Shown here one piece after another: positions 2,935 to 34,952 of a DNA stretch of 38,888 nucleotides. The notes under the pieces were generated by a model. The model saw only the letters and a program-made list of their open reading frames with translations. It searched no databases and was not told the origin of the DNA. Each line of letters begins with the position of its first letter. Position 1 is the first letter of the stretch. Position numbers and translations under genes: made by a program. Source of the DNA: a virus; UHGV virus genome UHGV-0098678; one strand, written 5' to 3'.

Positions 2935-3232
2935 GTTTAGACCTCGATATTTTGAAAATATGAACAACGTTACCGCGTGTTTTAATAACCGCGGCAAGCA
3001 TGACAGCGTTGATAATGACCTCAGATAAATCCACAGCCATTGGCGTGCGTAACCAGATTGCATAGACGACACGAACAGGAATACTTGCCGCAGCAACAAT
3101 AAGGAAATAAGCAAGCCACCCTCCCCATCTTCGATGTTGAGAGCCGTTACGCCGGAATGTGACAACGCGAATTGCTATGCCAGTACAAATAACTGCATTG
3201 GTGATAAGCAAAAAAAACTCATGCGTTACCAT
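2924..3232 (-). CDS. holin-like membrane protein (holin or antiholin)
   Basis: 102 aa with 2-3 predicted TM segments; ATG at 3232 with GGGGAG upstream; directly precedes and overlaps the endolysin start. Confidence 0.5.
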   Translation of the reverse strand: MVTHEFFLLITNAVICTGIAIRVVTFRRNGSQHRRWGGWLAYFLIVAAASIPVRVVYAIWLRTPMAVDLSEVIINAVMLAAVIKTRGNVVHIFKISRSKHGD

Positions 3233-3695: not shown

Positions 3696-6158
3696 TCAAT
3701 TCCCTGTTAATTGCAAAACTTGCTCTTCCAGCTTTTTAACCCTGCGTCTCATCATCGCAGATTCCAGAATCAGAGCCTCTTCATAACGGATACCGTAACA
3801 TTCACCAGCCTCGACGGCTTCGCGTACCAGAACCTTTGTCTGTATAAGTGGGTAAACTCCTGCAGAATGCTCTTCTTCCGTCACATCCCTGTATTCTGCC
3901 GGGGTCTCATTCCACTTGTCATAACAGATAAATGCCAGTCGTGACACATCTATGCCTTCATTCTGAAATACACTGATAACATGCTGCGCAACTGCACCAA
4001 AGTGCCATCTTGCTCCGTCTTTACCTTTCACTTCGATCCTGTCAAGGTACTGGTATGAAACCCATTCCACTCTTTCCCATGCGTCCAGTATTTTCTCATC
4101 AATAACCTCTGGAGCAGTCTTGAAACGCGCATCGGACAGCACCGTAAACGCTGACTGGGTAAATCCCCCCGACCATGCACGACCAGCCAACCCAAGAGAA
4201 TAAGTATTCGTTGTCGATGGTGTCATGGCTGAATCAGAAAACTGTATATATTCTGAATTTCCAGTAGATATTCGAATATTTCCATTTATTAGCGACATAG
4301 TGCCTTTAGTATTATCACTATTGAATAATTTCAATTGCGAACTTATACCGCCTCCCACAGCCAGAGATACATCGCCTTCAGCAAGCATTCTGAATTTATC
4401 TGCAGAAACAAGCGTCTGGTTAGCAAGGTTAAAATATTTAACCCACCATTCAAAACGCCCTGACATAGTCCCAACGTACTGACCAAGCGCAGGGACGTGA
4501 ACAACATTGCTATTTGTAGTGCCGTCTATACTGGAAATACCAGTCACCGCTGATGCAGAACTCAGAATATTATTTCTGTCACCCGGATGTTTAATTTCAA
4601 CAAAGTTCCTGATACACCCTTCCTCGAAGGTAACCACGCCGGAAGAACTATACATGGGGAATATTGACGCATAATTACTGCGTGCAGCATCTAAGAAACG
4701 AATGGTTGTAGATGTCTGCAGATCTCCTGATTCATTTTTCCCATCACACCCAGTCATTAGAATATTACTGGCAATATTATTATTTCCATGAACGGTGACT
4801 CCGTGCGCCTGCTTTGCGTCCGATTCAGAGTAATCAACCAGCACATTCGAAATCAGGTTACCAGTCCCCTTGCCAACAACTACTGCGGCGTATTTTGGGT
4901 TGTTAGCCATTACACTGCTAATGATATTATTCGTTGGGGCAGTTTCCGTCTCAGTTCCATTGTAAACAACGTGCTGACACTCTTCACCAATAACATTGCT
5001 GACAATGTTATATTTTGCTGCTGTTTTAAGTTCCACTGCACCAAACTGAGGATAATTTCTGGCTATCACACCATCAATTAGCGTATTTTGCGATGAATCA
5101 AAAAGCACACAACCTGCTTTTTTATTATTTGCGAACCCTAAATACTCTCCTCTTATATCTCTAACAATGTAACCTGACGGAATACCATTATTCGGATAAG
5201 CGATCAAGCTAAATCCTGTTCCTCGCGTATTTGTAAATCTGATATTTTTAACCGATACATCATGGCCACCTGAAAATGACACCTGGTGTCCCTGCACACT
5301 ATCATCTGATTTATTTCCCATAATTGTTAGCGTACTAAGCATGCCACCATCGGGCATGTTAAAAACCAGATGATTACCATCTCTGTCATACTGTTTTATC
5401 GTTCCCCCACCTGTTCCGTACAAGCCACAACGTGAAAGAGAAACTAAAGATGTATTGAATACCCCTTCCGGAACAAAAACACTGCTAAACGAATGTAATG
5501 ATTTTGTAAAAGCATCCTTGTTATCATTTAAGATTCCATTTTGAGCTCCAAAATCCTTAATGCTGACACCATCACGCATCTTATCCTGGAACGTTCTGTA
5601 TACCGCTCCAGAACCATACTGAATAAACCAACCAAAACCACCAATAACTCCGGCGATTGCAGCATCGACATAATTACGCATTGAGCGATTATTTACAGCG
5701 TCCTGCTCAAGTGATGGATCGGCAAGGTTAGATATTCTGTTTTGCTTTGCATCGTAATATTTTGCAAGCAAAGATGGTTTCATCAATGCACGTCTGAACC
5801 ACCCAAAACATCGCTGGATCAGCATCGTCAGGTAGTCAAATGCATCCTCATGAACTTCGGGGAAAAATTTTCCCTGATTGCGAAGATCAGTCTCCTGCAC
5901 CACATCAAGCACACGCTCTATCGTGATTCGCCAGCCAGCAGCAAGCGGCGACGGAAGAACCACTGCACCGCCACTATAAGTTCCCGCCCCTGTTACCGTA
6001 TAACCAGCATCCAGCACTAGTTTTGTAACGTTACCGTTAAGGTCAGACACCTGAACAACCAGGTCGGATTTTTTGAAAATACGGAAGGTATACGGAAATG
6101 ATGTCGTAACGCCGTTACCTGTGTATTCGTTGTGGTCAACTTCGGTTGAGACCGTCAT
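3696..6158 (-). CDS. tail fiber / tailspike with T7 gp17-like N-terminal adaptor, central beta-helix-like region and C-terminal S74-type intramolecular chaperone domain
   Basis: 820 aa. N-terminus (YTGNGVTTSFPYTF ... NRISNLADPSLEQDAVNNRSMRNYV) matches the T7 tail-fiber N-terminal domain pattern; C-terminus contains SDARFK and a coiled-coil tail typical of self-cleaving chaperone domains; SD GGAG 8 nt upstream of ATG 6158. Confidence 0.75.
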   Translation of the reverse strand: MTVSTEVDHNEYTGNGVTTSFPYTFRIFKKSDLVVQVSDLNGNVTKLVLDAGYTVTGAGTYSGGAVVLPSPLAAGWRITIERVLDVVQETDLRNQGKFFPEVHEDAFDYLTMLIQRCFGWFRRALMKPSLLAKYYDAKQNRISNLADPSLEQDAVNNRSMRNYVDAAIAGVIGGFGWFIQYGSGAVYRTFQDKMRDGVSIKDFGAQNGILNDNKDAFTKSLHSFSSVFVPEGVFNTSLVSLSRCGLYGTGGGTIKQYDRDGNHLVFNMPDGGMLSTLTIMGNKSDDSVQGHQVSFSGGHDVSVKNIRFTNTRGTGFSLIAYPNNGIPSGYIVRDIRGEYLGFANNKKAGCVLFDSSQNTLIDGVIARNYPQFGAVELKTAAKYNIVSNVIGEECQHVVYNGTETETAPTNNIISSVMANNPKYAAVVVGKGTGNLISNVLVDYSESDAKQAHGVTVHGNNNIASNILMTGCDGKNESGDLQTSTTIRFLDAARSNYASIFPMYSSSGVVTFEEGCIRNFVEIKHPGDRNNILSSASAVTGISSIDGTTNSNVVHVPALGQYVGTMSGRFEWWVKYFNLANQTLVSADKFRMLAEGDVSLAVGGGISSQLKLFNSDNTKGTMSLINGNIRISTGNSEYIQFSDSAMTPSTTNTYSLGLAGRAWSGGFTQSAFTVLSDARFKTAPEVIDEKILDAWERVEWVSYQYLDRIEVKGKDGARWHFGAVAQHVISVFQNEGIDVSRLAFICYDKWNETPAEYRDVTEEEHSAGVYPLIQTKVLVREAVEAGECYGIRYEEALILESAMMRRRVKKLEEQVLQLTGN

Positions 6159-6262
6159 GTTAAATCTCCAGATAGTCGCAGCACCCGTTGCGCCGCATAT
6201 CTGGTTATTCTATTACCCAAAAAACCATATATGGATAGAAAGACTGTGAATATGAATAGATA

Positions 6263-6277
6263 TTACCTTTCAGGTAA
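6263..6277. promoter_or_regulatory. 15-bp palindrome TTACC-N5-GGTAA (putative repressor operator)
   Basis: TTACCtttcaGGTAA, extended palindrome aTTACC...GGTAAt at 6262-6278; about 40 bp upstream of the LexA box and antirepressor gene; same core as the site at 24915. Confidence 0.5.
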
Positions 6278-6314
6278 TTTGCAAAACGTGCTGGATAGCA
6301 AACAAATTATTTGA

Positions 6315-6334
6315 TACTGTATAAATATACAGTT
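6315..6334. promoter_or_regulatory. LexA (SOS) box
   Basis: tACTGTataaatatACAGtt: CTGT-N8-ACAG with AT-rich spacer, matching the gammaproteobacterial LexA consensus TACTGTATATATATACAGTA; ends 6 nt before the ATG at 6340. Confidence 0.8.
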
Positions 6335-6339
6335 ATTGC

Positions 6340-6612
6340 ATGGAGAAGATTAAGATGCAGCAGTATCACTATCCACTGGAAGAGGGATTTACCGAAAGGA
6401 TTCACACGCCGGGAGGCGTCAGGTCACTGGTGGAGGGATCGCACTTGATGAAATTACTCCGGGATCTCGATAAGGATGGATTTAATGTCGATGGCCCACT
6501 TGCCGAACTGACTGCACTGATTAACTACGTCACCAGCTCACAGATGTCTATGCAGGATCTGCAAACACATCTCGACTATTGTGCCGAACAATTACGAAAA
6601 CAAACCAGATAA
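6340..6612 (+). CDS. small LexA-controlled antirepressor-like protein (start 6340 or 6355)
   Basis: 90-aa ORF directly behind the LexA box; about 75 aa align with the C-terminal domain of the adjacent Bro-N protein (LMKLLRDLDKDGFNVDGPLAELT vs LMNLLNQLQDDGHDVSGAAAELT; QDLQTH vs RDIQTH). Confidence 0.55.
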   Translation: MEKIKMQQYHYPLEEGFTERIHTPGGVRSLVEGSHLMKLLRDLDKDGFNVDGPLAELTALINYVTSSQMSMQDLQTHLDYCAEQLRKQTR

Positions 6613-6643
6613 GGTTTGAAATTACCAAATGGAGTGCTTATAT

Positions 6644-6658
6644 TTACCTTTGCGGTAA
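6644..6658. promoter_or_regulatory. 15-bp palindrome TTACC-N5-GGTAA (putative operator)
   Basis: TTACCtttgcGGTAA inside a 19-bp perfect palindrome atTTACCtttgcGGTAAat (6642-6660); itself flanked by inverted repeat GGAGTGC/GCACTCC. Confidence 0.45.
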
Positions 6659-6751
6659 ATTTACATTGCACTCCTCTTGTGCCATAGTAATCAGGCACTG
6701 GCAAAATCCAGTGCCGGGATTGGTCTCCCGGATTACTACAGAGGCACATAT

Positions 6752-6771
6752 GCCGCATAAGCGGTTTTTTT
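6752..6771 (+). terminator. weak rho-independent terminator candidate
   Basis: Short GC stem (CCGC ataa GCGG) followed by seven T residues, about 140 nt downstream of the small antirepressor ORF. Confidence 0.3.
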
Positions 6772-6925
6772 ATGTGTAAAGCGCACCTATTCTATGGTGG
6801 GCTGTGTGGGGGCACCGAAAGGTGCGCCGGGTTCCTTTGTAGCCGGTAAGACCAACTCTGCACAGTTCACCACCATCTGATTGGTCTCAGCGGTGGTGAT
6901 TAACCTAACTACAAAGGTGATCGCC

Positions 6926-7618
6926 ATGAATACCAAACCTTCCATCTTTTCCTTTGAGTCATCCTGCCAGATCCGTATGTTCATGATTGACGGAGAACCT
7001 TGGTTTGTCACCAAAGATGTGTGCAATGCTTTGAATATTGATGTTACACAAGCGAGAAAACTTGATAAAAAAGGCTGGAACAAAAAGGGGCTGTATTCAA
7101 TACAGACCCCTGGTGGAATACAAGAACTATCCATCGTTTCAGAATCAGGTCTCTACATCCTTATTCTGCGTTGCAAAGAGGCAATGACAGAGGGAACGAG
7201 AGCATTCAGATTTCTTGAATGGGTTACAGGTGAGGTTCTTCCTCAGATCCGCCGCACCGGAAGTTACATTAAAAACTCGCTCCCGCAGGAAGAACGCATA
7301 AAGATGGTTGCCGACCAGGTAGCCAACGCCACAGCATCAGCAGTGATGCAGGCAATGAAGATAGAGAACAAAACCTACAGTGCCCCACTGAAGCCCGGCT
7401 ACCGCAGCCTGATTCACTCGCCGTCTGGTGTTCTCGGCCTGACGGAGAACTCACTGCTGATGAATCTGCTGAACCAGTTACAGGACGACGGGCACGACGT
7501 ATCGGGCGCGGCGGCGGAGCTGACCACCATGTTCTGCTACATCGTTGGTGTGAGCAAATGCCTGCGTGATATCCAGACGCACGCGGAGTACATCAACGAC
7601 AAGGCAGGGTTCTTCTGA
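6926..7618 (+). CDS. Bro-N domain antirepressor
   Basis: ATG at 6926 with SD AAAGGTGA; N-terminus FSFESSCQIRMFMIDGEPWFVTKDVCNALNI matches the Bro-N/antirepressor fold; C-terminal domain is paralogous to the small ORF at 6340-6612. Confidence 0.75.
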   Translation: MNTKPSIFSFESSCQIRMFMIDGEPWFVTKDVCNALNIDVTQARKLDKKGWNKKGLYSIQTPGGIQELSIVSESGLYILILRCKEAMTEGTRAFRFLEWVTGEVLPQIRRTGSYIKNSLPQEERIKMVADQVANATASAVMQAMKIENKTYSAPLKPGYRSLIHSPSGVLGLTENSLLMNLLNQLQDDGHDVSGAAAELTTMFCYIVGVSKCLRDIQTHAEYINDKAGFF

Positions 7619-7684
7619 CGGGCGGCGGCACAGGGATGTGCCTTTAAAATAATCATTGGCGATGTGATGTAGATTCGCGTAATA

Positions 7685-7699
7685 TTACCTTAAAGGTAA
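7685..7699. promoter_or_regulatory. 15-bp palindrome TTACC-N5-GGTAA (putative operator)
   Basis: TTACCttaaaGGTAA immediately upstream of the SD (AGGAGG) and ATG of the 55-aa ORF at 7712. Confidence 0.45.
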
Positions 7700-7711
7700 A
7701 GGAGGCGCGAT

Positions 7712-7879
7712 ATGACAGCGTTGAAAAATCGTACTCAGCACAATGAACAAGCCAAGCAATGCTGGGATGTCATTGGAAAAGTTATGCTTGGTCGCGCAAG
7801 CAAAGAGCGCGACAAGGATATGGTTTACCAGACAGGAACATCTTTTAGCGACTTCAAGGCGGCATTTCGCTCCAAATAG
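7712..7879 (+). CDS. hypothetical small basic protein (55 aa)
   Basis: Not in the ORF track (under 60 aa); ATG 7712 with strong SD AAAGGAGG; translated by hand as MTALKNRTQHNEQAKQCWDVIGKVMLGRASKERDKDMVYQTGTSFSDFKAAFRSK; stop TAG 7877-7879. Confidence 0.45.
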   Translation: MTALKNRTQHNEQAKQCWDVIGKVMLGRASKERDKDMVYQTGTSFSDFKAAFRSK

Positions 7880-25251: not shown

Positions 25252-25328
25252 GTGGCATTAGCTCAGTTGGACAGAGCAACCGCCTTCTAAGCGGTTGGTC
25301 GCAGGTTCGAATCCTGCATGCCACGCCA
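25252..25328 (+). tRNA. tRNA-Arg (anticodon UCU)
   Basis: Hand-folded cloverleaf: acceptor GTGGCAT/ATGCCAC, D-arm GCTC...GAGC, anticodon stem ACCGC/GCGGT with loop CTTCTAA (anticodon TCT), 5-nt variable loop, T-arm GCAGG-TTCGAAT-CCTGC, discriminator G, encoded CCA. Confidence 0.85.
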
Positions 25329-34367: not shown

Positions 34368-34952
34368 ATGAAAAGTATCCAGGACGTCCGCAGGCAAAAT
34401 CTCAACGACTTGATCGACCGTGAATTCAATGGTGTTCAGACGCGGATGGCAGAAAAACTTGGAACTCAGGCAAATCTGGTAAACCGCTGGGCTCTTGGCA
34501 AGAAGGTTATCGGCGACCAGGTTGCACGAAAAATTGAAGCTGCCGCCAATAAACCCCGTAACTGGCTTGATATTGATCGTTCGCTTTCTCAGGAGGGTTT
34601 TCAGCCTGTCGGACCAAGCGACATTGGTCAACTGGCGGCTCACAACCTGGAACGCTGGATGAGCGAAAGCCGCGACCTTTCAACACAGGGAAAACTTCAC
34701 CGCGCATCCGGCGTAGCCCAGGTGACAATCAGCCGCCTGTTAAACAATGAGGTCAGCGTTTCCATTTCCACCCTGGAGAATGTTGCATCCGCATTCGGGC
34801 GTCATGGCTATGAATTACTGATTCACCCGCACGACCCTGCGACCATCAACTATGATCGCTCGCGCTACGCATTGTTACCCGAAACCGAGAAAGCAAAGAT
34901 CGAAAGTTACATTGAATTTGTCATCAACCAGAACGAAAAAAGCAAACAATAA
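34368..34952 (+). CDS. phage repressor-like protein with two HTH domains and no S24 peptidase domain
   Basis: 194 aa; first HTH around QTRMAEKLGTQANLVNRWALGKK, second around LHRASGVAQVTISRLLNNEVSVSISTLENVASAFG; no Ala-Gly/Ser-Lys autocleavage module; sits between operator clusters like lambda cI. Confidence 0.55.
   Translation: MKSIQDVRRQNLNDLIDREFNGVQTRMAEKLGTQANLVNRWALGKKVIGDQVARKIEAAANKPRNWLDIDRSLSQEGFQPVGPSDIGQLAAHNLERWMSESRDLSTQGKLHRASGVAQVTISRLLNNEVSVSISTLENVASAFGRHGYELLIHPHDPATINYDRSRYALLPETEKAKIESYIEFVINQNEKSKQ

Follow-up and report, generated by a model that had tools for sequence, protein, structure and literature searches.

Between two antirepressor genes of the virus genome UHGV-0098678 lies a 310-bp spacer (6613-6925) that the original prediction regarded as structured and non-coding, and as a possible sRNA, transcriptional attenuator or translational control element; an Rfam scan together with folding and covariation analysis were proposed as checks. 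The question raised by this locus is which of these functions, if any, the spacer performs. In the window, by which is meant the whole analyzed stretch of 38,888 nucleotides, the spacer is a known phage RNA switch composed of the IsrK sRNA followed by the c4 antisense RNA, and two Rfam families (isrK and C4 antisense RNA) match it end to end, both above their curated thresholds. The module is real and conserved, and the kind of system to which it belongs is already known and ordinary. Very probably, the spacer constitutes an RNA control module of the P1 immI type for the antirepressor gene downstream. The order of its parts, namely a repressor operator and promoter, a1b1, c4, a2b2 and ant, is that of the P1/P7 immI design, and the layout is the same as that of the Salmonella Gifsy-1 IsrK locus. 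The flanking genes are the following.

6340..6612, + strand: upstream gene for a 90-aa product, homologous to the C-terminal domain of Ant
6926..7618, + strand: ant, encoding the Bro-N antirepressor Ant (230 aa, ATG at 6926; Pfam, PHROG)

Ant matches the Pfam Bro-N family (E 1.8e-13) and PHROG 130, 'anti-repressor Ant' (E 2e-50), and a search for similarity to the P1 antirepressor Ant1 gave nothing significant. The 90-aa product, which matches phrog_450, shares 42% identity with the C-terminal domain of Ant (BLASTP, E 8e-17); 5′ of its gene are a LexA-box-like site (6315-6334, CTGT-N8-ACAG at 6317) and an operator copy (6262-6278). The earlier statement that the spacer holds no plausible ORF needs qualification, in that mechanical ORFs of 60-115 aa do overlap it, but coding is not what is conserved, since relatives carry 1- and 2-nt indels in the spacer and the frame that opens at the c4 AUG (6794) varies in length between 14 and over 100 codons across 15 distant phage loci. 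The two RNAs and their substructures are arranged as follows.

6695..6771, + strand: IsrK sRNA, equivalent to the c4-a1b1 leader plus terminator (Rfam RF01394)
6695-6714, + strand: IsrK hairpin 1 (GGCACTGG/CCAGTGCC arms at 6694-6701/6708-6715)
6715-6730, + strand: IsrK hairpin 2 (CCGGGA/TCCCGG arms at 6714-6719/6726-6731)
6752-6765, + strand: stem of the IsrK Rho-independent terminator, followed by U7 (T7 in DNA; terminator prediction)
6790..6877, + strand: c4 antisense RNA (Rfam RF01695, MFE fold)
6795-6811/6856-6872, + strand: c4 helix P1 (MFE structure)
6812-6825, + strand: c4 helix P2 with a GAAA loop (GCACC 6812-6816/GGTGC 6821-6825; MFE structure)
6826-6847, + strand: c4 helix P3, carrying b′ CCUUUGUAG at 6834-6842 (MFE structure)
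6849-6855, + strand: c4 linker with a′ AGACCAA (sequence)

The model of the isrK Hfq-binding RNA family (RF01394) is matched at 74.7 bits against a gathering score of 50, over model positions 1-77 of 77, and the RNA consists of two 5′ hairpins and a Rho-independent terminator, as this family requires. The consecutive hairpins and U-tract that had been read as a possible sRNA are thus IsrK, and hairpin 1 shows compensatory changes in six of its seven pairs. Membership in the c4-a1b1 family (RF03163) was rejected by score, the match at 6682-6734 reaching 38.4 bits (E 5.5e-08) against a gathering score of 46.7; its two-hairpin structure is present, and the isrK model describes the leader better.

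The C4 model (RF01695) is likewise matched over its full length (positions 1-87 of 87); the score of 78.6 bits compares with a gathering score of 45. The MFE structure of this RNA has the canonical three helices, with P2 capped by a GAAA loop. The GNRA-loop hairpin noted originally is real and corresponds to this helix. Among 16 sequences, the share of cells that pair is 98.9% for P1, 94.5% for P2 and 100% for P3, with 6, 4 and 2 compensatory pairs, respectively. The mature c4 is predicted, by analogy, to span about 6796-6874, its ends being taken from the P1 annotation and from the RNase P 'GGW' site summarized elsewhere (PMC5320573); sequence hints of RNase P excision are a GGU at the predicted 5′ end (6796) and a CCACC(A) after the stem, as in P1.

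Family membership, structure, complementarity and three-way covariation are shown directly for this locus. Nucleotides 6690-6940 fold with a z-score of -5.96 (0 of 200 shuffles as good), and standard pairs fill 95% of the pair cells in 16 diverse homologues, as compared with 33-45% when partners are slid. Compensatory changes on both sides were found for 27 pairs, distributed over the helices of both RNAs and including the intermolecular a1:a′ and a':a2 helices. Those intermolecular helices involve the following target sites, to which an alternative hairpin is added.

6720..6726, + strand: site a1 (UUGGUCU), in the loop of IsrK hairpin 2; 7/7 Watson-Crick pairs with c4 a′
6736..6744, + strand: site b1 (CTACAGAGG; CUACAGAGG), single-stranded in IsrK; pairs with c4 b′
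6881..6887, + strand: site a2 (UUGGUCU); 7/7 pairs with c4 a′
6909..6917, + strand: site b2 (CTACAAAGG; CUACAAAGG); 9/9 pairs with c4 b′
6867..6899, + strand: alternative hairpin UCACCACC...GGUGGUGA (direct reading of the sequence)

The b1:b′ helix comprises 9 bp, one of them a G-U pair. Site a2 starts 4 nt after the Rfam c4 match, and 1-7 nt after c4 in 15 of 15 compared loci, and b2 overlaps the Shine-Dalgarno sequence AAGGUGA (6914-6920) of ant. The decamer GATTGGTCTC, which was originally reported to occur twice, does so, at 6718-6727 and 6879-6888, where it contains a1 and a2 (TTGGTCT), but the coordinates first given for it (6720-6733 and 6887-6898) are 2-8 nt off. Every structural motif listed at that time is present in the sequence on direct inspection, and all three of the functions then proposed were essentially right. 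The decamer is the a1/a2 target of c4, and b2, the second target, covers the ant Shine-Dalgarno sequence.

Across the entire window, an exact TTGGTCT has a 9-nt b match within the next 45 nt in two places, which flank c4, and rough arithmetic gives about 0.005 strict a-then-b occurrences by chance. A loose scan allowing G-U pairs and one mismatch returns about 1.8 matches per shuffled window, and complementarity without position and covariation is therefore not convincing. Two sets of loci supply that context: 80 that encode close relatives of Ant, and 15 distant phage loci that include P1, APSE-7, VT2-Sakai (a Stx phage), Moraxella Mcat4, and Klebsiella, Hafnia and Salmonella phages. Among the 80 close loci there are five matched specificity types, in each of which a1/a′/a2 and b1/b′/b2 change together. 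In relatives, TTGGTCT at the a sites is replaced by TTGGCGT, TTGAGAC, TTGACAG or TTCGCAG, with a1, a′ and a2 covarying. Among the 15 distant loci, isrK or an equivalent lies 20-27 nt upstream of C4, the target sets keep pace with 12 distinct b′ and 6 distinct a′ sequences while their positions stay nearly constant, and b1 changes with b′ and b2 in every locus. In a Gifsy-like locus, C4 sits exactly at the 'orf45' position and is followed by isrJ.

The alternative hairpin has arms at 6867-6874 (TCACCACC) and 6892-6899 (GGTGGTGA), with a2 in its loop. A hairpin had been proposed immediately before the Bro-N Shine-Dalgarno sequence, and both arms exist, but TCACCACC belongs to the basal stem (P1) of c4, whose 3′ strand it forms, and is not an independent arm. 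The segment GGUGGUGA is nearly invariant in enterobacterial relatives, and in the alignment over 6867-6899 the enterobacterial sequences are invariant while those of P1 and Mcat4 are shifted; the matching changes CUACCACC/GGUGGUAG in Mcat4 come from direct reading only. A further conformation emerges from the MFE fold of 6690-6940, which pairs a1..b1 with b'..a′ and is nearly isoenergetic with the canonical fold (-100.5 vs -97.2 kcal/mol); these two folds reproduce structures A and B of Gifsy-1. Two duplex calculations are uninformative: with RNAduplex and the whole c4, many unrelated segments rank as high as the true targets, and RNAcofold of c4 with the leader gives no net gain, a result that is not contrary because loop-loop kissing cannot be modelled by this tool.

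Upstream of IsrK, the spacer contains candidate control sites for transcription.

6616..6644, + strand: upstream promoter-like site TTGAAA-17-TATATT (consensus scan, 10/12 matches)
6643..6659, no strand: operator-like palindrome TTTACC-N5-GGTAAA (ATTTACC-tttgc-GGTAAAT at 6642-6660; pattern scan, conservation)
6660..6688, + strand: isrK/c4 promoter TTTACA-17-CATAGT (consensus scan; predicted start near 6695)

As judged from a pattern scan and from relatives, the operator palindrome recognized in the original prediction is a conserved instance of the operator that belongs to the repressor of these phages. The pattern ATTACC-N5-GGTAAT has 15 matches at no more than two mismatches against 0.92 expected, in epsilon15 the site corresponding to the copy at 6262 is annotated as bound by a 'repressor', and the half-sites are kept across relatives, with a variable 5-nt spacer. 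By its sequence, the palindrome at 6643..6659 is thus a putative binding site for the repressor. It adjoins the -35 element of the isrK promoter and overlaps the -10 element and predicted start of the upstream promoter-like site. Its center near -44 of the isrK promoter is compatible with repression or activation alike. Lambda CI activates PRM from a position near -44, and so it is conceivable that the prophage repressor activates its own immunity RNA rather than repressing it. The palindrome was also described as nested in an inverted repeat, and GGAGTGC (6631-6637) and GCACTCC (6668-6674) do flank it; this outer repeat was rejected as a functional element because its left arm is not conserved, being replaced in about half of the relatives, and it is probably incidental.

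The CATAGT of the isrK promoter ends 6 nt before 6695, and in 15 of 15 compared loci an equivalent -35/17/-10 arrangement stops 6-7 nt short of the IsrK 5′ end; its counterpart in the P1 record is the annotated promoter P1c4/P51b. The site at 6616..6644 is possibly the repressor-controlled counterpart of P1 P2c4/P51a, although its sequence is poorly conserved among relatives, which makes the evidence for a promoter there weak.

A mechanism can be proposed in which RNase P processing, translational block, decoy action and repressor-operator binding are carried over by analogy from work on P1/P7 and Gifsy-1. Transcription would start at about 6695 from the TTTACA-17-CATAGT promoter, next to the phage-repressor operator copy, and most transcripts would end at the terminator (6752-6771), yielding an IsrK of ~77 nt in which a1 should be exposed in the loop of a hairpin and b1 should lie unpaired. 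Read-through transcripts would include the c4 RNA (6790-6877), which RNase P, as in P1, may excise at the GGU at 6796. The a′ sequence in the c4 linker and the b′ sequence in the P3 loop (CCUUUGUAG) would then pair with a2 and b2 in the ant leader and, because b2 overlaps the Shine-Dalgarno sequence, ribosome binding would be blocked and no Ant made. This repression would cover both the resident prophage and a superinfecting phage of the same a/b specificity. The a1/b1 sites of IsrK would act as decoys for the same c4 surfaces: in cis they could form the long helix of the inactive 'structure A', and in trans an excess of IsrK would titrate c4, freeing the ant ribosome-binding site. The findings leave the current understanding of the mechanism unchanged.

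The likeness to P1/P7 immI (c4, icd, ant; Citron and Schuster, 1990; RF01695, RF03163) extends well beyond the shared order of parts. The P1 record annotates a C1 operator, promoters, a1, b1, c4, a2, b2 and the RBS; in both systems there are one or two promoters, a1 resides in a hairpin loop, a terminator-like hairpin follows b1, c4 forms helices P1, P2 and P3, a2 lies just after c4, the same c4 surfaces are used (linker as a′, P3 loop as b'), and specificity is carried by a/b sequences that differ between immunity types. The P1 leader, terminator included, matches the isrK model at only 35 bits, whereas that of the window exceeds the threshold. Three local differences can be recognized. There is neither an icd nor an orf45 leader gene here, and no ORF intervenes between c4 and ant; P1 b2 has the same position relative to the icd Shine-Dalgarno sequence as b2 of the window has relative to that of ant, and since icd is absent, b2 covers the Shine-Dalgarno sequence of ant itself. 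The antirepressor is a Bro-N protein unrelated to P1 Ant, and the C1 operator of P1 is replaced by the ATTACC-N5-GGTAAT operator of an epsilon15/phiV10-like HTH repressor. The HTH repressor of the window has 194 aa and is encoded at 34368-34952. The icd leader is a P1/P7-specific feature that forms no part of the C4 RNA family definition, and the other compared loci contain nothing like the separate icd that starts after c4 in P1.

The Gifsy-1 IsrK locus (isrK, orf45, anrP; Hershko-Shalev et al., 2016; PMC4825925) shares with the window the two hairpins and leaky terminator, and its read-through yields antirepressor mRNA, as is proposed here. Both loci also have a long cis helix between mid-IsrK and a segment ~130 nt downstream, with two nearly isoenergetic conformations; in Gifsy-1 this helix was proved by the compensatory mutations G28A/C162U and G31A/C159U (PMC4825925). 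A stable processed RNA, STnc1160, maps to the c4 position (PMC4825925), and in the searched literature orf45/STnc1160 is not described as a c4 RNA. Unlike in Gifsy-1, an antQ antiterminator does not adjoin the module, which lies in the tailspike-proximal accessory region of a podovirus rather than in the lambdoid nin/Q region.

An identical cassette of isrK, C4 and a Bro-N gene exists in APSE phages of Hamiltonella (Rouil et al., 2020; PMC7313666), where the antisense regions match the region upstream of the BRO gene, as in the window, with different a/b sequences (GUCUCAA and CCUUGUUAG). The names a′ and b′ are swapped in the APSE record relative to that of P1. A link between IsrK and c4 was sought in the searched literature; the two RNAs are named together nowhere there but in the APSE genome paper and a 2025 review, which treat them as separate items. 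Other antisense controls of phage immunity are the P4 CI RNA with seqA/seqC and the P22 sar RNA. The former is a small RNA processed out of the leader of its own target operon, is flanked on both sides by copies of its target, and acts by transcription termination on replication genes; the latter controls ant and is a true cis-antisense transcript from the opposite strand. The module would resemble P4 CI as a processed leader RNA with flanking targets and P22 sar in its proposed control of ant, and neither RNA family has a match in the window.

Gifsy-1, as the closest experimentally studied IsrK locus, supplies a model of its own, in which activation was ascribed to translation of the leader orf45 coupled to the antirepressor (PMC4825925). 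Applied strictly, it would make the c4 region mainly an orf45-like leader ORF whose IsrK-activated translation is coupled to ant, with no antisense c4 acting in trans. The conserved 5′ end of c4 does contain an AUG (6794) with a 28-codon frame, in several other loci the frame from this AUG reaches to or into ant, and the annotation of VT2-Sakai has an ORF that covers c4 and overlaps the start of ant. However, the frame in the window ends at 6880, 46 nt before the ant ATG, and so orf45-type coupling cannot work here; an orf45- or icd-like leader peptide was rejected for the window on this ground, and the Gifsy-1 experimental model transfers only in part. The variable length of this frame among the 15 loci, substitutions that preserve RNA pairs rather than the peptide, the direct overlap of b2 with the ant Shine-Dalgarno sequence and the detection of processed STnc1160 by the Gifsy-1 authors themselves also argue against this strict Gifsy-1 reading, which we regard as improbable.

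It is very improbable that c4 acts mainly on transcription, either in the manner of P4 CI RNA or of Rho-dependent polarity in P1, with a2/b2 pairing causing premature termination, or with the a2 hairpin serving as an attenuator. Biere, Citron and Schuster are said to have found in 1992 that, when translation of P1 icd is repressed, Rho-dependent termination occurs before ant; in the window, ant is not preceded by a leader ORF that could be silenced so as to uncover Rho sites. Weinberg et al. noted that a terminator hairpin frequently shares sequence with the 3′ half of c4 P1, and the alternative hairpin at 6867-6899 does use the c4 3′ strand, but no U-tract follows it, and terminator prediction gave nothing on the + strand from 6772 to 7618. 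Although IsrK supplied in trans raised a Gifsy-1 transcriptional fusion 8-fold, its effect on antirepressor translation was far larger (>100-fold, at 139-fold; PMC4825925). A reading without any RNA-based regulation, in which the hairpins are incidental and the spacer holds merely the terminator of the 90-aa gene and a promoter for ant, could appeal to the terminator and promoter-like hexamers that are present, and to the absence of any RefSeq-annotated feature at the spacer in the 441 of 5426 complete E. coli genomes that carry it. Full-length covariance-model matches, the 27 compensatory pairs and three-way target-site covariation extending to Moraxella Mcat4 and APSE effectively refute it.

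Within the preferred reading, an RNA control module of the P1 immI type, it seems conceivable but rather unlikely that RNA connects the two antirepressors in series. Terminator prediction gave none on the + strand between the 90-aa gene and isrK, so read-through from about 6315 into isrK would be expected. SOS-induced transcription from a LexA-box promoter at ~6315 would cross the 90-aa gene and stop at the IsrK terminator, flooding the cell with extra a1/b1 decoy RNA that would titrate c4 away and so permit the Bro-N Ant to be translated. If so, IsrK would be the anti-antisense arm of the c4 switch, and the Gifsy-1 'IsrK/orf45' and P1 c4 literatures, treated separately in the searched literature, would be unified.

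The phage thus very probably has a second, RNA-based immunity layer that guards an antirepressor. At least five matched a/b specificities exist among closely related prophages, from which it can be predicted which of them would cross-silence each other's Ant. In phiV10-like prophages, the spacer can be labelled isrK and c4, with the a/b sites marked. The original prediction had missed that its motifs belong to two catalogued RNA families arranged as in phage P1 immI, and some phage records place hypothetical proteins over the c4 RNA.

Scanned in full against Rfam at the curated gathering thresholds, the window shows two full-length families in the spacer (6613-6925) upstream of the antirepressor gene ant: isrK (RF01394) at 6695-6771 (74.7 bits; gathering score 50) and the C4 antisense RNA (RF01695) at 6790-6877 (78.6 bits; gathering score 45). 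In a permissive scan, c4-a1b1 (RF03163) also matches 6682-6734, with 38.4 bits, under its threshold of 46.7. The spacer is a real, conserved regulatory RNA region, as the original prediction had suspected and as the membership, structure, complementarity and covariation observed here bear out, and it is an ordinary member of a known system, plain by score. The finding is already known in kind, because both RNAs are curated in Rfam, the same cassette is annotated 5′ of the Bro-N gene in APSE phages (PMC7313666), and the mechanism has been studied experimentally in phages P1/P7 (summarised in PMC5320573) and the Salmonella prophage Gifsy-1 (PMC4825925).

All motifs that had been named in the spacer were located on reading 6000-7600:

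6631-6637 and 6668-6674, outer inverted repeat (GGAGTGC and GCACTCC) enclosing the inner palindrome
6642-6660, inner palindrome ATTTACC-tttgc-GGTAAAT, between the repeat arms
6694-6715 and 6714-6731, two consecutive hairpins
6752-6765, terminator-like stem, followed by seven T
6812-6825, GNRA hairpin GCACC-gaaa-GGTGC
6867-6874 and 6892-6899, hairpin arms TCACCACC and GGTGGTGA

The consecutive hairpins and the U-tract terminator correspond to IsrK, the GNRA hairpin to helix P2 of c4, and TCACCACC to the 3′ side of P1, the basal stem of c4. The decamer GATTGGTCTC does occur twice, at 6718-6727 and 6879-6888, slightly away from the positions first assigned to it. RNA spanning 6690-6940 is much more stable than its shuffled counterparts (z = -5.96), none of 200 shuffles folding as well. 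The outer repeat shows no conservation in the aligned upstream regions of relatives.

The pairing elements of c4 and its targets, named after the annotated P1 record and checked against the P1 sequence, are the following:

6849-6855, a′, AGACCAA, in the c4 linker
6720-6726, a1, TTGGTCT, in the loop of IsrK hairpin 2, perfect complement of a′
6881-6887, a2, TTGGTCT, four bases past c4, perfect complement of a′
6834-6842, b′, CCUUUGUAG, in the c4 P3 loop
6736-6744, b1, CUACAGAGG, pairing with b′ with one G-U
6909-6917, b2, CUACAAAGG, pairing with b′

The cores of the repeated decamer are a1 and a2. Site b2 overlaps the Shine-Dalgarno sequence AAGGUGA (6914-6920) of ant, whose ATG is at 6926 and whose product is a Bro-N antirepressor (Pfam Bro-N, E 1.8e-13; PHROG 'anti-repressor Ant', E 2e-50). 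Hairpin 6867-6874/6892-6899 is an alternative structure, holding a2 in its loop and using the c4 3′ strand as an arm; it is conserved, with matching changes in the Moraxella phage Mcat4 on direct reading. Complementarity alone is weak evidence, since under loose scan criteria a shuffled window is expected to give about 1.8 a-then-b hits.

The decisive evidence for these predicted target sites is comparative. Upstream regions were aligned from 80 viral contigs encoding relatives of Ant (67-100% identity), and they fall into five matched specificity types, in each of which a1/a′/a2 and b1/b′/b2 co-vary.

Specificity types among the 80 contigs (order: site 1/prime/site 2)
Window type: a, TTGGTCT/AGACCAA/TTGGTCT; b, CTACAGAGG/CCTTTGTAG/CTACAAAGG
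Second type: a, TTGGCGT/ACGCCAA/TTGGCGT; b, CTAAAAGG/CCTTTTAG/CTAAAAGG
Third type: a, TTGGCGT/ACGCCAA/TTGGCGT, as in the second; b, CTAAGTGG/CCACTTAG/CTAAGTGG
Fourth type: a, TTGGCGT/ACGCCAA/TTGGCGT, as in the second; b, as in the window type
Fifth type: a, TTGGTCT/AGACCAA/TTGGTCT, as in the window; b, GTCACAG/CTGTGAC/GTCACAG

A mismatched recombinant lies upstream of ant in contig IMGVR_UViG_3300045988_096329, where a TTGGCGT-type a1 in IsrK is combined with a TTGGTCT-type a′ in c4 and an a2 of that same TTGGTCT type; pairing between the decoy and the c4 of this locus would be poor.

The same relationship extends to 15 further loci, comprising 13 more distant annotated phage loci (including P1, APSE-7, VT2-Sakai, Moraxella Mcat4 and Klebsiella, Hafnia, Enterobacter and Salmonella phages) and two contigs from the Ant-relative set. 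In 13 of these 15, the Rfam isrK match lies 20-27 nt 5′ of C4; in P1 the a1b1 leader occupies the isrK position, and at a Gifsy-like locus hairpin 1 is divergent and no leader match reaches the gathering threshold. With the window counted, 12 different b′ and 6 different a′ sequences occur, and both target sets track c4 at near-fixed positions: a1 about 70-82 nt and b1 about 54-69 nt before it, a2 1-7 nt past it, and b2 usually 29-38 nt past it, on or beside the Shine-Dalgarno sequence. VT2-Sakai and the Gifsy-like locus have a short P3 loop and weak b matches. Across the 16-sequence alignment, standard pairs fill 95% of pair cells, as against 33-45% once the partners are shifted by 1-3 columns, and 27 of 50 pairs have changed on both sides; none of 500 shuffles reaches the observed values, the a1:a′ and a′:a2 helices included.

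The remainder of the mechanism is transferred by analogy from the experimental systems. In P1/P7, RNase P cuts c4 from the leader of the c4-icd-ant transcript at a GGW motif, and a′ and b′ pair with a2 and b2, with b′ blocking the ribosome-binding site (summarised in PMC5320573; P1 record). Competition of a1/b1 with a2/b2 for c4 was proposed by Citron and Schuster, as recounted by Weinberg et al. (2010). For Gifsy-1, compensatory mutations proved that the central part of IsrK forms a long helix in cis with a segment lying about 130 nt further 3′. When provided in trans, IsrK bound this segment and increased translation of the antirepressor by more than 100-fold, and a stable processed RNA, STnc1160, maps to the segment's position (PMC4825925). 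At the Gifsy-like locus, Rfam C4 lies exactly at the position of orf45; the searchable literature holds no connection between IsrK/orf45 and c4. From a related sequence, rather than the figure in PMC4825925 itself, we infer that the mutated residues, G28/G31 with C162/C159, have a spacing consistent with the a1:a′ pairs GGCG:CGCC. The Gifsy-1 cis-helix behavior is reproduced in the window: the minimum-free-energy fold of 6690-6940 likewise pairs a1..b1 with b′..a′, and it differs little in energy from the canonical fold of IsrK plus c4 (-100.5 vs -97.2 kcal/mol). Given these shared features and the P1/P7 and Gifsy-1 experiments, the promoter would fire with IsrK as the end product of most transcripts, read-through would yield c4 and the ant leader, c4 would close the ant ribosome-binding site, and IsrK could serve as a decoy able to lift this block.

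One feature of P1 and Gifsy-1, the icd or orf45 leader gene, is absent from the window. Translational coupling of the Gifsy-1 or P1 type cannot apply here, because the frame from the conserved c4 AUG (6794) ends at 6880, 46 nt ahead of the ant ATG, and its length is not conserved (14 to >100 codons across loci). Since Ant and P1 Ant1 share no significant similarity, the RNA module is portable between unrelated antirepressor genes. The P1 a1b1 leader (331-412 of the P1 locus) scores 35.1 bits against the isrK model, under the gathering score of 50; the match takes in a terminator-like hairpin and U-run between b1 and c4, and P1 may likewise make a short IsrK-like transcript.

The window represents a podovirus genome or prophage of the epsilon15/phiV10 type (Uetakevirus). 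The cassette is missing from epsilon15, in which a terminator lies directly 3′ of the homologue of the 90-aa ORF (6340-6612); at the position equivalent to the terminator annotated after epsilon15 gp19, the window has a minus-strand terminator-like hairpin (6601-6618) just past the ORF stop codon, without a U-tract on the + strand. Describing the spacer as lying between two antirepressor genes was fair, since the 90-aa ORF (phrog_450, unknown function) is 42% identical to the Ant C-terminal domain (E 8e-17) and is preceded immediately by a near-consensus LexA box, TACTGTATAAATATACAGTT, at 6315-6334. It looks like an SOS-controlled small antirepressor following Gifsy/186-Tum logic. Conceivably, though this seems unlikely, read-through from this LexA-controlled gene is a source of a1b1 decoy RNA and thereby ties Ant translation to SOS induction; in 6612-6752 the + strand has no predicted terminator.

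The inner palindrome contains TTTACC-N5-GGTAAA (6643-6659), of the ATTACC-N5-GGTAAT family, which has 15 copies in the window at ≤2 mismatches against 0.92 expected (among them 6262, 6643, 7684, 24914, 28078, 31904, 31966, 34297, 35009 and 35071). Copies flank a 194-aa HTH_3 protein (34368-34952), taken to be the phage's repressor and without a Pfam self-cleavage domain match, and precede accessory genes; one copy is an annotated repressor site in epsilon15. Related phages keep the half-sites of the 6643-6659 palindrome but vary its 5-nt spacer, and in every relative it abuts the -35 element of a predicted promoter, TTTACA-17-CATAGT, which ends 6 nt ahead of the IsrK 5′ end; the P1 record annotates the corresponding hexamers as promoter P1c4/P51b. 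Another copy of the palindrome, at 7684-7700, directly adjoins the Shine-Dalgarno sequence of a 55-aa ORF (7712-7879, phrog_8607, unknown function). Elsewhere in the window are a + strand tRNA-Arg (anticodon UCU) at 25252-25328 (Rfam 73.3 bits, also ARAGORN) and, on the - strand at 3696-6158, an 820-aa tailspike-like protein with an N-terminus common to the phiV10/epsilon15 tail fibre, a beta-helix region and a C-terminal Peptidase_S74 (endosialidase chaperone).

The 313-bp region 6613-6925 occurs, almost always chromosomally, in 441 of 5426 complete E. coli genomes; RefSeq places no feature under it in the 12 best matches listed of these 441. In phiV10, the isrK/c4 region is not annotated as such, and a 'similar to SF0880' feature spans the Rfam c4 (3092-3159 of that locus); in VT2-Sakai, a hypothetical protein (orf34, NP_050533) is annotated on the c4 RNA (1563-1736). 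Both are likely mis-annotations. The APSE-7 record (2639-2662) labels the P3 loop a′ and the linker b′, the reverse of the P1 record (356-560), in which a sites are the partners of the linker and b sites those of the loop, a trap when annotations are compared.
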